Virus record (IMG/VR): IMGVR_UViG_3300046000_006837
Coordinates: 1 to 59,299 of that record
Source of the DNA: a virus
Taxonomy: Duplodnaviria; Caudoviricetes
Reading direction: 5' to 3' (one strand)
DNA: 59,299 bases
The position numbers and the translations under genes were made by a program. Under the pieces are notes generated by a model. It did no database searches and was not told where the DNA came from. It saw only the letters and a program-made list of their open reading frames with translations. Shown in pieces: positions 13,118 through 32,726 of this stretch (positions are counted from its first letter, which is position 1; each line of letters begins with the position of its first letter).

Positions 13118-13242
13118 AGTCAGGTAGCTCAGTTGGGTAGAGCAACCGGTGACAACGGTTCGAGTCCGTTCCATACGAAAGTGTGAGGTGTGTAGGGTAG
13201 CAAGCGGGTGTGACGCAGGTTCGATTCCTGTCCTGACTTCCA
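13118..13242 (+). ncRNA. tRNA-like RNA T1 with encoded CCA and expanded anticodon region
   Basis: AGTCAGG/CCTGACT acceptor, GCTC/GAGC D-stem, GCAGG-TTCGATT-CCTGT T-arm, TCCA end. Confidence 0.8.
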
Positions 13243-13269
13243 AAGGTTAATAGATGTTTAAGTGGTTTG

Positions 13270-13301
13270 GCTCCTGGCAGTAGATGTCAGGAGTTTTTTT
13301 T
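13270..13301 (+). terminator. intrinsic terminator
   Basis: GCTCCTGGCA/TGTCAGGAGT then T run. Confidence 0.85.
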
Positions 13302-13310
13302 GTTGCCAGT

Positions 13311-13353
13311 GAATTTCGCTCAGAGCAGAGCGAAGCTCTGCCTGAGTAAATTT
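13311..13353. repeat. cassette-boundary hairpin H10
   Basis: same stem as H9, loop gaa. Confidence 0.9.
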
Positions 13354-13405
13354 TCCCCCTCCTCCTTTCCAGGATGGCCAGGGATCTATGGGGGAAATCC
13401 AGGCG

Positions 13406-13605
13406 TTAACATTTTTTAACATTTCTTTAAGATCCTTTTAACATTTGAAATTAGGATATTAGATAGATTGGGTGTATCTTTGCAATGTCAATTAGATGAT
13501 GGGGAATAGATGAGATATGGTATGGGTTACATTTTACTACATTTCATTTTAACATGACTTTAACATTTTAGGATTAGGATATTAGATGGAATGTCATTAT
13601 CTTTG
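13406..13605 (+). promoter_or_regulatory. two tandem TTAAC-box promoters
   Basis: TTAAC/TTAAG 13406, 13416, 13427, 13438 with TATCTTTG 13475; TTAAC 13549, 13560 with TATCTTTG 13598. Confidence 0.8.
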
Positions 13606-13640
13606 CGACATATTATTAACCACTTTAAATTTTTAGAATC

Positions 13641-14210
13641 ATGCCAAATTGGTGTTCAAATTGTATCTCATTTGAAGGTAATGAGAAAGCTATGGAAACA
13701 TTTAGAAAAGATGTTGCCAGTATTGAGGACGGTCATTGTATATTTACTGCATTGACTGATTTTAAAGAAGAATGGTGTTATGATGATTGGTGTAATGAGT
13801 TCGGCACTAAATGGAGTGTAACGATGGACGATGACATTAGGAGTAACGTGAAAGAATGTGATTACTTTAATTGTGAAACGGCTTGGAGTCCATGTACGGA
13901 ATTTGTTAAGAAGGTATGTAAGAAGTACGGAATAGAAGGACGGATTGAATATACAGAAGGGGGGTGTGACATTGCAGGTATTGTTGAGATTGATGTAAAT
14001 GGTGATGAAGTAAGTAGAAGAGATATGACTTATAATGAATATCAGTATGAAGAAGTACCTGAGAGTTTCTTCTATGATTTTATTATGAATGTTGAAGATG
14101 GATTGATTGAAAGTGAGGAGCAGATAAGAGAAGAATATTCATTTGTTACTGAGGAGGATATGTTGGAATTGATTGTATTGTTTAATGAGAATGTCCCCTC
14201 GAAAAATTAA
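13641..14210 (+). CDS. YubB/Api92-like ferredoxin-fold protein
   Basis: MPNWC.N, W....FGTKW, TAWSP motifs. Confidence 0.6.
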   Translation: MPNWCSNCISFEGNEKAMETFRKDVASIEDGHCIFTALTDFKEEWCYDDWCNEFGTKWSVTMDDDIRSNVKECDYFNCETAWSPCTEFVKKVCKKYGIEGRIEYTEGGCDIAGIVEIDVNGDEVSRRDMTYNEYQYEEVPESFFYDFIMNVEDGLIESEEQIREEYSFVTEEDMLELIVLFNENVPSKN

Positions 14211-14294
14211 CATAATATTAACATGAGGGGATTTGGTTTTCTCAATTATCCCCCCTATATTTGCACTATATTCTTTACCACTAAACTAAAAAAA

Positions 14295-15020
14295 ATGGGC
14301 GACCAAAAAATTAAGATTGTAGAAGATTTTGTATGGCTATTGATTACCGACAAAGCTAAGGAAGTTTACCAGTCGGGTTTATTTGATGGTTCTATCTGTG
14401 CGCTACATGATGACGGTAGCGAGAGTTTATGTGATACCTACGAAGACCTTACCGAAGCATTAGAGAGAGGTCTTGAAATCGGAATAGAGGTTGGCCATAT
14501 AACCAAACCAAAACCTAAAGAAGTAGAATGGTATAATACCCTATACAATTTAGATGTTACGACCTTCAGGAACTTAGACCCTATCATGGAAGCTAAGACA
14601 GATGAGGAGTGGATTAAGGCAGGAGAACAGGGCATTCCAGCTTGGTGCTACTACGACAATGACCCAGCGAACAACGAACTATTTGGCAAGCTATATAATT
14701 GGCATGCGGTAAATGATAAGAGAGGACTTGCACCCGAAGGATTTAGAATTCCAACCATAGAGGAGTTAGATAACTTATATATTAGCCCAGGTTATTTGTA
14801 TCCGTCAGGGTCTCGTACTCATGAGAAAACCAGTTATGGGAAGTACTTTAATAGCTTTGATGCTATTAGAGAAATGGGGTTCTTTTGGAGTTCTACGGAA
14901 GATGATATTGATAGAAATTTTGCTTGGTACAGATACTTTACGAATCACCCTGATAACAATGCGGGCATAGATGTAAATCATAAGTCAATGGGTGCATCGG
15001 TTATCTGCATCAAAGATTAA
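14295..15020 (+). CDS. protein with C-terminal FISUMP (Fibrobacter succinogenes major paralogous) domain
   Basis: GKLYNW.AV.D.RGLAP.G.RIPT, FFWSST, G.SV.C motifs. Confidence 0.7.
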   Translation: MGDQKIKIVEDFVWLLITDKAKEVYQSGLFDGSICALHDDGSESLCDTYEDLTEALERGLEIGIEVGHITKPKPKEVEWYNTLYNLDVTTFRNLDPIMEAKTDEEWIKAGEQGIPAWCYYDNDPANNELFGKLYNWHAVNDKRGLAPEGFRIPTIEELDNLYISPGYLYPSGSRTHEKTSYGKYFNSFDAIREMGFFWSSTEDDIDRNFAWYRYFTNHPDNNAGIDVNHKSMGASVICIKD

Positions 15021-15104
15021 CATAATCTTAACATGGGGGGATTTGGTTTTCTCGAATATCCCCCCTATATTTGCATCATATTATTCACCACTTTAAAAAA
15101 CAAC

Positions 15105-15317
15105 ATGAGAAATAGTAAAGAATGGATAGCTGTCTTAAATGGCACAAGGATTGATTCTAATGGGTTCTATTGCAGTGAGTTCTTTCGTAGGACATGTGTT
15201 ACCTCCTACAATAAGAAAGAAGCTGTACGATTACTCTCGAAGGCTAAGATGCACTACTTCGGTACTTATAAGATTCCCAAGGAAGTTAGGATGAGGACAG
15301 GCATCATTTCTAATTAA
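15105..15317 (+). CDS. hypothetical protein, tandem duplicate A
   Basis: near-identical to 15401..15601 including promoter. Confidence 0.75.
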   Translation: MRNSKEWIAVLNGTRIDSNGFYCSEFFRRTCVTSYNKKEAVRLLSKAKMHYFGTYKIPKEVRMRTGIISN

Positions 15318-15400
15318 CAAAATATTAACATGGGGGGATTTGGTTTTCTCGAATATCCCCCCTATATTTGCATCATATTATTCATCACTTAAAAAACAAC

Positions 15401-15601
15401 ATGAGAAATAGTAAAGAATGGATAGCTGTCTTAAATGGCACAAGGATTGATTCTAATGGGTTCTACTGTGGTGCGGCCTGTGTTACCTCATACAATAAGA
15501 AAGAGGCCATACGATTACTCTCTAAGGCTAAGATGCATTACTTCGGTACCTATAAGATTAGTAAGGAAGTTAGAAGGAATACAAACATCTACGCTAATTA
15601 A
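15401..15601 (+). CDS. hypothetical protein, tandem duplicate B
   Basis: near-identical to 15105..15317. Confidence 0.75.
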   Translation: MRNSKEWIAVLNGTRIDSNGFYCGAACVTSYNKKEAIRLLSKAKMHYFGTYKISKEVRRNTNIYAN

Positions 15602-31444: not shown

Positions 31445-31458
31445 CTAAAAAATAAAAC

Positions 31459-31611
31459 ATGGATTTATTTATTTTATTATTATCAACTGCTGTTATTCTT
31501 GGTTTATCTAATAAATCAGATTATCAAATTAAAAAGGAAGCAGATAAATTACCTCCTTTTACGAAACAAGAAGCAATAGATTATTACTATAGAGAACTTT
31601 TAGGAAAATAA
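31459..31611 (+). CDS. small membrane-anchored protein (50 aa, not in ORF track)
   Basis: MDLFILLLSTAVILGLSNK...; fills the gap between T7 and T8. Confidence 0.55.
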   Translation: MDLFILLLSTAVILGLSNKSDYQIKKEADKLPPFTKQEAIDYYYRELLGK

Positions 31612-31618
31612 TAAACTT

Positions 31619-31809
31619 GGCAAGGTGGCGAAATGTTTAAACAACCCCGTTCCAGCCGTGAAAATAATGTGGTTAGAATCCACTACGGGGTTAATGTTTG
31701 AACTTGGTAGACGCTTAAGGGTTGGATAGATGTTGCAACGTAAAACAGAGAAAATAACCTAACAAATCATACAAAATCTATCGTGCAGGTTCGAATCCTG
31801 CCCTTGCTA
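31619..31809 (+). ncRNA. tRNA-Leu-like RNA T8 (191 nt; D-loop and anticodon inserts)
   Basis: GGCAAGG/CCTTGCT, GCG...TTGGTAGACGC, GCAGG-TTCGAAT-CCTGC. Confidence 0.8.
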
Positions 31810-31871
31810 CGCAAAAAACATAAGATGGAGTTTCCTTACCTTGTAAAAGATGGGTTTTAGAAATCTTAATT

Positions 31872-31949
31872 AGTCAGGTGGCAGATTGGTATGCAACTCT
31901 CAGTGTAAACAAAGGGGGTGATAAGCAGGTTCGAATCCTGTCCTGACTG
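31872..31949 (+). ncRNA. tRNA-like RNA T9 (12-nt anticodon loop)
   Basis: AGTCAGG/CCTGACT, GCA/TGC, ACTCTC/GGGGGT, GCAGG-TTCGAAT-CCTGT. Confidence 0.8.
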
Positions 31950-31970
31950 CAAACTTTAAAAACAAATAAC

Positions 31971-32225
31971 ATGGTAAACGAAATAACAAAAGTATTTTCT
32001 GACATGTCCAATGAATAATTAGCTCAAGTAATTCAAGAAATGAAAGAAGATGGTCCACAAGGTATTATCCGTATGGAAGGTATTATAAGGGAAAAATGTA
32101 ACATGATTCAAAAGATTGTAGGTGGAGATACTTACGAACGTATAATGATGGTTCAGTTTTCAATTCTTCAAGAAGCTGCGTATAGGTTTACACCAACGAT
32201 GGATGAATTAACACATAATGTATAA
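31971..32225 (+). pseudogene. ORF interrupted by in-frame TAA at 32016-32018
   Basis: ATG 31971 is in frame with 32040..32225; a single stop lies between them. Confidence 0.5.
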
Positions 32226-32232
32226 ATAATAT

Positions 32233-32341
32233 AGTCAGATGGTGAAATTGGTTCACCTTAGCAGTAGCAGACACTACATAAAAATTGGCCGAATGTCATC
32301 GATACCAAAAGCTAATACAGGTTCGAATCCTGTTCTGACTA
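32233..32341 (+). ncRNA. tRNA-like RNA T10
   Basis: AGTCAGA/TCTGACT, GTGAA/TTCAC, TTAGC/GCTAA, ACAGG-TTCGAAT-CCTGT. Confidence 0.8.
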
Positions 32342-32357
32342 CAAAAAAATTAAGGTC

Positions 32358-32615
32358 ATGAATATTAAACAATTAAAAGAATCAATCGCAAATCTTCCTG
32401 ATGAAATGGAAGTGGTTTTACAAAAAGATAGTGAGGGTAACGGGTATAGTCCACTTAAAGGTGTTGACTCAGATGCTGTTTACATTCCTTATAATACATG
32501 GTCAGGGGATGTTTATTCAATTGGATGGACTTCAGATGAAGCTGATATGTCAGATAAAGAATGGCAGGAAATAAAGTCAAAACCAAGAACTTTGATTTTA
32601 TATCCTGTTAATTAA
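32358..32615 (+). CDS. hypothetical phage protein
   Basis: LPD.MEV...D.EGNGYSP motif. Confidence 0.8.
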   Translation: MNIKQLKESIANLPDEMEVVLQKDSEGNGYSPLKGVDSDAVYIPYNTWSGDVYSIGWTSDEADMSDKEWQEIKSKPRTLILYPVN

Positions 32616-32624
32616 TATTAACCT

Positions 32625-32726
32625 AGTCAGGTGGCGGAATGGTAGACGCACATCCTAAATACATTCAGATGGTGGAACTGAATTAATTGGGTGTACCACT
32701 TGCAGGTTCGAATCCTGTTCTGGCTA
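32625..32726 (+). ncRNA. tRNA-Leu-like RNA T11
   Basis: AGTCAGG/TCTGGCT, TGGCGGAATGGTAGACGC, GCAGG-TTCGAAT-CCTGT. Confidence 0.85.

Follow-up and report, generated by a model that had tools for sequence, protein, structure and literature searches.

The IMG/VR record IMGVR_UViG_3300046000_006837, a stretch of 59,299 bases from a tailed phage (Caudoviricetes) that we call the window throughout, carries eleven elements, T1 to T11, which keep the outer frame of a tRNA and hold unrelated sequence in place of the anticodon region. The tRNA shell of these elements is under selection. Most of the cores that it encloses are hypervariable and exchangeable, a few are conserved, and the elements are enriched at tight intercistronic positions on the transcribed strand. 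The reading that we put forward, tentatively and at somewhat less than even probability, is that these are non-decoding RNAs derived from tRNA-Leu which would be matured like tRNAs, and that their main selected role would lie in the processing, or punctuation, of phage transcripts.

The tRNA shell of the eleven elements

The window has an estimated completeness of 39%, a GC content of 27-38% (2-kb windows) and many small open reading frames (ORFs) on the plus strand, and ARAGORN detects no canonical tRNA in it. The eleven elements are 74-191 nucleotides (nt) long including the discriminator base, and all lie on the plus strand. Each begins with the 7-nt strand AGTCAGG, AGCAAGG or a one-letter variant of these, and a complementary 7-nt strand follows the T-arm, giving two shells, AGTCAGG/CCTGACT and AGCAAGG/CCTTGCT. 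The T-arm reads (G/A)CAGG TTCGAAT CCTG(C/T) in about nine of the eleven; those of T1 and T4 deviate by one or two loop letters, and that of T5 is CCGG TTCAAGT CCGG. Nine elements have A as the discriminator; T1 has T and T9 has G. A motif search of the window returned 11 T-arms with 11 matching 5' shells, and the extra matches were an internal second T-arm of T1 and one at 1998 that has no matching 5' shell. The start coordinates given for all eleven in an initial annotation of this DNA proved correct on inspection of the sequence, and the architecture it proposed, a 7-bp acceptor stem, a T-arm and usually a D-arm with unrelated sequence in place of the anticodon region, is borne out; the inserts measure ~20-140 nt.

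T1 (13118-13239, 122 nt) has the AGTCAGG shell and is followed, after its T discriminator, by an encoded CCA. T2 (16543-16675, 133 nt) and T3 (16880-16953, 74 nt) share the AGCAAGG shell; the core of T2, which has a Leu-type D-arm, holds a nested second tRNA 5' half that an Rfam match (16594-16675) pairs with the shared 3' shell, and T3, with a bulged stem and 6-nt loop at the anticodon position, scores 55.9 bits as a tRNA in Rfam. T4 (30207-30332, 126 nt; shell AGTCAGA/TCTGACC) carries a hairpin inserted in the D-loop, and the same hairpin is present in the related loci L004, L008 and L022 with a compensated stem (CAGC/GCTG versus CGGC/GCCG). T5 (30411-30489, 79 nt; GGTCAGG shell) belongs to a subfamily with a conserved core, and T6 (30639-30732, 94 nt) has the shell AACAAGG/CCTTGTT, in which pair 2:71 is compensated. 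An AGCAAGG shell and Leu-type D-arm are found in T7 (31344-31444, 101 nt), and an AGTCAGG shell with a 6-bp stem and 12-nt loop at the anticodon position in T9 (31872-31949, 78 nt). The shell of T10 (32233-32341, 109 nt) is AGTCAGA/TCTGACT, with pair 7:66 compensated, and that of T11 (32625-32726, 102 nt), which also has the Leu-type D-arm, is AGTCAGG/TCTGGCT. The longest element, T8 (31619-31809, 191 nt; GGCAAGG shell), has its Leu-type D-arm split by a 69-nt D-loop insertion (31635-31703) that lies between near-direct repeats; within it a T-arm-like hairpin is capped by two helices, one formed by GTTTAAAC/GTTTGAAC and one of 8 bp. This insertion recurs in L004, L008 and L022, and probably also in one element with the AGTCAGG shell, which matches it over its first 60 nt; it may represent a mobile insert of small size. 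The non-coding spacers between T4, T5 and T6 (30333-30410 and 30490-30638) are conserved as well (79 nt at 88.6% in L091; 196 nt at 84% in L004, L008 and L022) and may be further structured RNA.

The claim that no element has a 5-bp stem with a 7-nt loop holds for the anticodon position of ten of the eleven and fails for T1, where AACCG GTGACAA CGGTT (from 13144) directly follows the D-arm. This anticodon-arm-like hairpin overlaps the internal second T-arm of T1, and the two are mutually exclusive. Elsewhere in the elements, 5-bp/7-nt matches occur only in the D-arm or D-loop region of T8 and T10. The Leu-type D-arm reported for T2, T7, T8 and T11 is real, being equal to the D-arm of a tRNA-Leu gene in a Sediminibacterium genome.

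Pairing in the acceptor and T-stems reaches 98.5% of 132 cells in an alignment of the eleven elements, with changes on both sides in 5 of the 12 pairs, and when the partner strand is slid along the alignment no more than 52% of the cells pair. The covariation score of this alignment was reached in none of 500 shuffles. Random decay of the stems, which the initial annotation had named as an outcome that would make the elements pseudogenes, does not describe the set; selection acts on the shell. A match to an existing Rfam family, the other outcome it named, is found in a trivial sense, as the shell scores as tRNA, and no Rfam family fits the cores. The gathering threshold (29 bits) of the Rfam tRNA model (RF00005) is passed by seven of the eleven elements, in alignments that place 14-59 nt where the model has the inner anticodon arm (11-18 model positions). 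T4 (22.1 bits) and T6 (21.1 bits, a partial match) fall below it, and T5 and T8 gave no tRNA match in the Rfam scan. Scans of 30100-32900 and 13000-17100 with E up to 1 returned only tRNA, a 9-bit fragment of tmRNA and a sub-threshold SNORD44, and tRNA alone was returned by a scan of the whole window at gathering threshold. ARAGORN calls just two of the elements, T3 with a four-base "anticodon" ggaa and T9 as Phe (aaa). The description of the set as diversified tRNA mimics that are unable to decode is supported by these results.

A family of variable cores in uncultured phages

IMG/VR was scanned with exact patterns for the 3' shells, which gave 25 stretches of the AGCAAGG type and at least 120 of the AGTCAGG type, and a script then collected T-arms followed by a 7-nt strand whose complement lies 60-300 nt upstream. 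Among the matches listed in these scans there are at least 207 different family sequences, 60-250 nt long, at about 133 loci, and the family counts given below (204-207 elements, 133 loci) refer to these. The constancy of the shell is partly a product of the exact 3'-shell search, which misses anticodon-less elements with other shells. Conservation extends to positions outside the search patterns: U8 is present in 199 and G9 in 181 of the 207 sequences, and a D-arm with GG in its loop is found in 165 members, compared with 33.35 in shuffles. The D-arms themselves vary, with Leu-type, Val/Ala-like and other forms; the Leu-type, again identical to the D-arm of the Sediminibacterium tRNA-Leu, occurs in 69/207. 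ARAGORN calls a tRNA of any kind in only 34/207 family sequences, and some 40 of 181 non-family scanner hits likewise receive no ARAGORN call.

Across ~185,000 species, represented by one genome each, the AGCAAGG 3' shell was found just twice, in a 7.4-kb phage-like contig binned with a Sediminibacterium metagenome-assembled genome and in an ordinary tRNA-Met; judged by this search, the shell is no host tRNA. The 50,697 GenBank phage records contain no match to the 2.8-kb cluster or to the AGTCAGA-type 3' shell, and the AGCAAGG-type shell gave only partial, generic T-arm matches there, mostly in annotated tRNA-Met genes or unannotated DNA. The family was found in no cultured phage among these records. 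Canonical tRNAs accompany family members at 37 of the 133 loci, and 13 of the 133 have five or more. The family appears to be large and confined so far to uncultured phages. We found no description of it in the literature searched. PMC10690425 reports candidate structured RNAs from IMG/VR with "putative tRNAs or tRNA-like" RNAs among them, and its supplementary tables may list the family. The proposal of an undescribed system stands for the family itself; the kind is not wholly new, as species 1 RNA of phage T4 is an older example, which the initial annotation had overlooked.

Two further structures were encountered in the related loci. One is a second long tRNA-like type of 156-176 nt (L043:7997-8152, L069:2259-2426, L082:585-760 and L119:836-992), with the acceptors TGTCAGG, TGTAAGG, TGACAGG or TGTAGAG, a GGAGG- or GAAGG-type T-stem (3' strand CCTTC or CCTCC) and a G discriminator; ARAGORN calls none of the four. 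The other is a conserved non-coding motif about 110 nt upstream of the tRNA-like element in L005, L010, L014, L016, L018, L002 and L030, composed of a covarying hairpin, a conserved single-stranded stretch and a hairpin GCCTG-GAAAGA-CAGGC, with a thymidylate-synthase-like gene as its 5' neighbor. It has no Rfam match and is absent from the window. A coding reading of this motif (...ASEDELAAWKDRQ) was rejected: the contigs show 1-nt indels in the loop of the hairpin, and neither a start nor a stop of the frame is consistent among them.

Core length ranges from 16 to 209 nt, with a median of 55 nt, and the 207 cores fall into 171 similarity clusters, of which 148 are singletons. They fold more stably than mononucleotide shuffles (mean z = -0.81, n = 184; 80% below zero). 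An anticodon-arm-like hairpin is present in only 8/207 cores, with 4.2 expected by chance, and an extra T-arm-like hairpin in 14/207, with 2.1 expected. These extra T-arms, together with the nested 5' half in T2, make some cores look like the debris of fused neighboring elements. A search for antisense guides, in which the 207 cores were compared by BLAST with 1.42 Mb of masked window and locus sequence, host genomes lying outside it, returned only family copies missed by the mask. The T5 subfamily, found in 18 IMG/VR stretches, is a conserved case. Its five-helix model pairs 97.8% of 272 cells in 13 sequences with 8 pairs changed on both sides, counts that lean in favor of the model because it was derived from the same 13 sequences; first RNAalifold runs on the T5 homologs gave poor or alternative structures.

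By sequence, the flanks of the elements match the flanks of true tRNA genes, both in these phages and in a likely host group. The base at -1 is T in 175 of 205 family elements, a residue that suits bacterial RNase P, and C follows the discriminator in 198 of 204, with A-rich sequence behind it. Canonical tRNA genes at the same loci have T at -1 in 143/198, and their commonest ends are CAAA, CTAA and CAAT. In the Sediminibacterium genome C74 is present in 20/20 tRNA genes, CCA is encoded in 2/20 and the end is CAAA in 11/20. Flanks of this type make processing and CCA addition plausible, and to the cell the elements would look like its own tRNA precursors.

The position of the elements relative to genes, which the initial annotation had missed, is mostly tight between ORFs and points to a role in transcript processing. 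T2, T3, T7, T8, T10 and T11 lie 7-13 nt 3' of a stop codon; these, and nine of the eleven elements overall, have an ATG within about 15-30 nt on their 3' side, the exceptions being T1, next to which is a terminator, and T4, next to which is T5. In the family, an ATG-initiated ORF of at least 30 amino acids begins 10-24 nt downstream of 63/204 elements versus 12.7 at random places; for canonical tRNAs of the same loci the figure is 22/198. A long ORF ends 5-14 nt upstream of 53/205 family elements. The intercistronic elements lie in promoter-poor stretches, whereas in the left 15 kb of the window every small ORF is preceded by a copy of a repeated promoter-like cassette.

The window shows no excess of sigma-70-type promoter matches (84 versus 93 expected). 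The motif TATNTTTGC occurs 28 times, with 4.47 expected; 26 copies are on the plus strand, and most belong to a repeated hairpin cassette that precedes small ORFs. We read it as a putative promoter by what we presume to be the Bacteroidota consensus, and the Bacteroidota promoter and translation conventions used here are assumed in the same way. Bacteroidota start translation without Shine-Dalgarno pairing, and the leaders downstream of the elements are A-rich and have no Shine-Dalgarno sequence. A Bacteroidota host would fit the promoter-like motifs, the trailer conventions and the one binned contig. Assembled contigs (Logan) from metatranscriptome libraries, in which DNA may also be present, cover T1, T4, T5 and the T8 core and were not used for expression or processing; contigs reveal neither the ends nor the levels of RNAs, and gaps in their cover carry no meaning. 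Several of their ends lie 0-3 nt from the sites where cleavage is predicted: the first base of X1 record 1 is 13118, X1 record 5 stops at 30204 and X5 record 27 at 30330, and X3 record 21 runs from 32344 to 32623. One contig over the T8 core has a depth of 34 compared with 2-3 for the other shown pieces of the same run; we do not count these as evidence.

Proposed transcript processing and the competing explanations

We suggest that the elements derive from a class II tRNA, most likely tRNA-Leu, and that the features kept are those which maturation enzymes would read: U at -1 and U8, an acceptor stem of 7 bp, a GG-containing D-arm, a T-arm with TTCGAAT, a discriminator that in most cases is A, the host-type C74 and an A-rich trailer. 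The anticodon and variable region would have been replaced by any compact insert able to fold on its own. Transcribed within polycistronic phage transcripts, the elements would be cut out by the RNase P and 3'-end tRNA machinery of the host. Neighboring small cistrons would thereby be separated, the downstream ORF receiving a short A-rich leader of roughly 15-20 nt ("tRNA punctuation"), and stable tRNA-like RNAs would be released, as by phage T4 with its species 1 RNA. For copies between ORFs we suppose that cistron separation is the main selected function. The repeated shells may double as recombination junctions at which cores and flanking gene cassettes are exchanged between related phages.

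Several observations sit poorly with this proposal. T1 marks the end of an operon, with its encoded CCA followed 30 nt later by a terminator-like hairpin on the plus strand (13269-13301; an 11-pair stem at 13269-13295, then TTTTTTGTTG), and there is no mRNA to release there. The same is true of T4-T5-T6, an RNA-only stretch right after the plus-strand promoter-like motif TATATTTGC (30189-30197), which lies 10 nt before T4. Within the same polycistronic stretches (about 17-27 kb) the majority of ORF junctions lack an element of this kind, and in other phages family members also occur inside pure tRNA arrays. The core of T5 is conserved and covarying, and one core is identical in four contigs with differing D-arms. 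Finally, the same two acceptor and T-arm sequences recur in more than 130 stretches although RNase P and RNase Z need no particular acceptor and the stems would be free to covary, a constancy that is due in part to ascertainment.

The genes around the cluster bear on what the RNAs might do. An HD-domain protein (28167-28670), a DEDD-type exonuclease-like protein (29480-30154), a metallophosphoesterase (35259-36023) and an RNA ligase (38868-39998) flank it, as does a P-loop kinase with a weak match to polynucleotide kinase (33313-33747). The HD-domain protein, kinase, metallophosphoesterase and ligase together would make up an RNA healing-and-sealing set, and a phage with RNA-repair genes probably faces defenses that damage tRNAs. 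Within 27454-40958 there is only one TATNTTTGC motif (30189), so the cluster and the RNA-repair genes may share a transcript. Six diverged contigs (L046, L099, L105, L061, L072 and L121) encode homologs of the ligase, kinase or phosphoesterase a few kb or less from family members, a co-location that could be inherited gene order and not a functional link. No recurring partner protein was found next to the elements, the recurrent nearby ORFs being small proteins of unknown function that include a DUF932 protein.

The relative G001, syntenic with the window at 85-93% identity, shows turnover of the elements. Its copies of T1, T3 and T8 keep shell and flanks around unrelated cores of different length: the T1 ortholog (29935-30005) has a different 71-nt body and is followed by a conserved terminator-like hairpin, the T3 ortholog lies at 35154-35224, and the T8 ortholog (45320-45407) is 88 nt long and has no insertion. 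In the T6 copy (about 44868-44956) the 5' shell is gone and the T-stem is broken, and T9 survives only as its 5' part. The 4.6 kb at 30159-34791, which hold T4, T5, T7 and T9-T11 in the window, correspond to about 620 nt in G001. In L011 and L025 an element with an unrelated 161-nt body precedes the same downstream ORF as T2. An RNA-library contig of a relative passes from a T1-like element (13122-13234) through 111 other letters to 16958 onward, ~5 nt past T3, and so skips 3.7 kb. The core swaps and this junction contig indicate that the shells behave as recombination junctions.

These data allow explanations other than transcript processing. A serious one, which we hold to be only somewhat less probable than processing, is that the released RNA is itself functional, its fixed acceptor and T-arm handle being read by a tRNA-binding partner (a LeuRS-type synthetase, EF-Tu, a host toxin attacking tRNA acceptor ends or a phage protein) and the RNA serving as a decoy or sponge, an aminoacyl donor or a scaffold. 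It would account for a shell that is conserved in sequence and not only in structure across 207 different cores, for members within genuine tRNA clusters, for the position of T1 with its encoded CCA, an arrangement kept in G001 despite the core swap, for the RNA-only unit T4-T6 behind a promoter-like motif and for the covarying T5 core. The Leu-type D-arms, the discriminator A of nine window copies, and the RNA-repair genes, in what looks like the same transcription unit here and near the family in the six diverged contigs, can be read in the same way. Decoys for anticodon nucleases, as proposed in the initial annotation, are nevertheless unlikely, given that anticodon-like loops are at chance level (8/207 versus 4.2). 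The variation of the D-arms implies no single synthetase identity, a decoy would be in competition with all the tRNA of the host, copies decay or vanish in a close relative (T6 and T9 in G001), and no recurrent partner protein lies beside the elements. A more specific and less probable form of this idea, which we regard as unlikely, is a phage-specific class of "fixed handle, variable cargo" RNAs, in which a host-matured handle would be read by a dedicated partner and the cores would be a diversified repertoire. Such a handle, of the AGUCAGG or AGCAAGG type, could sequester defense toxins that modify or cut tRNA acceptor ends, or could display regulatory or aptamer-like cores, and under both alternatives the RNAs would act jointly with the RNA-repair genes, with which they seem to share a transcript.

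That the elements are instead selfish or structural DNA repeats, comparable to the repeated intergenic elements of T4-like phages, is improbable. The 30-nt 3' shell and its 5' complement would then have spread and been homogenized by recombination or gene conversion, with cassette shuffling as the main effect, as the replacement of cores at orthologous sites between flanks of 85-93% identity, the contig that skips 3.7 kb and the collapse of 4.6 kb to about 620 nt would all suggest. A DNA repeat has no need, however, of U8, a GG D-arm, compensated stems, T at -1 or a tRNA-type trailer, nor of having 11/11 copies on the transcribed strand, and the 47 window ORFs scanned yielded no gene for a recombinase or a homing endonuclease. 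Still less credible is a set of decaying, functionless tRNA pseudogenes: decay is visible in the T6 copy of G001 and the truncated T9, and there is tRNA debris in cores, but decay would hit the shell too, which is kept in 207 variants with compensated pairs, and different parent tRNAs would have left different acceptor stems. We consider it similarly far-fetched that these are decoding tRNAs with introns, cut and then rejoined by the phage kinase, phosphoesterase and RNA ligase. The healing-and-sealing enzymes are encoded nearby and the inserts lie in the D-loop and anticodon region, as do introns of archaeal tRNAs; yet simple excision leaves no anticodon stem-loop in ten of the eleven elements, neither an intron nor a ribozyme family turned up in the Rfam scans (E up to 1), the ORFs scanned yielded no splicing endonuclease, and an RNA-library contig spans the T8 core unspliced.

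Other repeats of the window, known systems and significance

Repeated sequence of other kinds is abundant in the window. At least 15 copies of an 85-96-nt intergenic repeat lie within 3674-15691 (for example at 10227-10321, 12122-12216 and 15012-15107), in which TTAACAnnAnnTTAAC is followed by a GC-rich hairpin that covaries and by TATNTTTGC, with a small ORF starting at an ATG ~30 nt further on. The repeat resembles a promoter and hairpin cassette of the Bacteroidota type, one that would drive each small early gene. Six copies of a 65-nt repeat (3999-4063, 5233-5297, 6560-6624, 8681-8745, 10826-10890 and 13290-13354, the last after the terminator of T1) contain the covarying hairpin GCCAGTGAATTTCGCTCAGrGCAGrGC...GCyCTGCCTGAGTAAATTTT. 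Tandem gene-segment duplications at 1-3300 and 15090-16520, with repeats of 130-300 nt and 65-96% identity (families D7, D8, D10-D13, D17 and D18), suggest paralogous families of small genes. On the minus strand, 57718-59298 encodes a collagen-repeat tail-fiber protein with a C-terminal S74 chaperone domain that runs off the end of the window, and glycosyltransferase and glycine-rich structural genes lie near it.

The closest precedents are the T4 RNAs species 1 (rnaC) and species 2 (rnaD). RNase P processes these RNAs, and like them members of the present family occur in phage tRNA clusters. In the T4 record the 139-nt rnaC has a T-arm, CCGGG UUCGAAU CCCGG, near its 3' end, followed by a short strand that pairs with the 5' end; long hairpins stand in place of the anticodon arm, there is no clear 7-bp acceptor stem or D-arm, and its best Rfam score is 17.5 bits on tRNA-Sec (E = 0.76). 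Species 1 RNA thus shares with the family a tRNA-like 3' part, the absence of an anticodon arm and a place in a tRNA cluster. The T4 RNAs differ in being one or two per phage and not a diversified fixed-shell family; by eye rnaC and rnaD have only a generic T-loop in common with it, and the GenBank phage searches gave no T4 match. The passages on them in PMC3014915 and PMC9697503 describe small stable RNAs within the phage tRNA cluster whose roles are unknown.

In mitochondria, tRNA punctuation and the t-elements of plants define messenger RNA ends through RNase P and RNase Z. Like the phage elements, these are non-decoding tRNA-like structures beside mRNAs (PMC1920247, in the part available to us). 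They belong to an organelle system, whereas the phage elements, known here from their sequence, keep a full D-arm, a sequence-constant shell and large inserts. With class II tRNA-Leu (RF00005) the elements share the acceptor stem, U8, the Leu-type D-arm, the T-arm, A73 and a host-type trailer; they depart from it in lacking a 5-bp/7-nt anticodon arm in ten of the eleven, in an unusual A1-U72 pair and in lengths of up to 191 nt in the window and 250 nt in the family. A large insert between a tRNA-like acceptor and T-arm domain is also the plan of tmRNA, but the phage elements have a true D-arm stem, ARAGORN called no tmRNA, Rfam gave only a 17-nt T-arm match of 9 bits, and no tag frame or pseudoknot set was identified. 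The bacterial tRNA mimics represented in Rfam (YrlA/Y RNA and skipping-rope) gave no match in the scans of 30100-32900 and 13000-17100. The tRNA-microRNA genes of gammaherpesvirus 68, mascRNA and engineered tRNA scaffolds likewise use a tRNA frame that lets cellular tRNA enzymes process and stabilize an RNA attached to it or embedded in it. These are eukaryotic or man-made, and the natural ones carry their cargo outside the tRNA frame and not inside it; scaffolds of the engineered kind are treated in the accessible text of PMC3753655.

Standard tools score such elements as odd or pseudo tRNAs, by which phage tRNA counts are inflated or confused, and the elements mark hot spots of small-gene exchange between related phages. 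If the processing reading is true, phages would use tRNA look-alikes to cut long transcripts into separate messages. Such punctuation is known from mitochondria, we did not find it described for phages in the literature searched, and it would fit hosts of the Bacteroidota type. If instead the released RNAs act themselves, at least 207 non-decoding RNAs of tRNA shape would make up a large natural set, and the function of T4 species 1 and 2 RNAs, obscure for decades, could become easier to approach through them.

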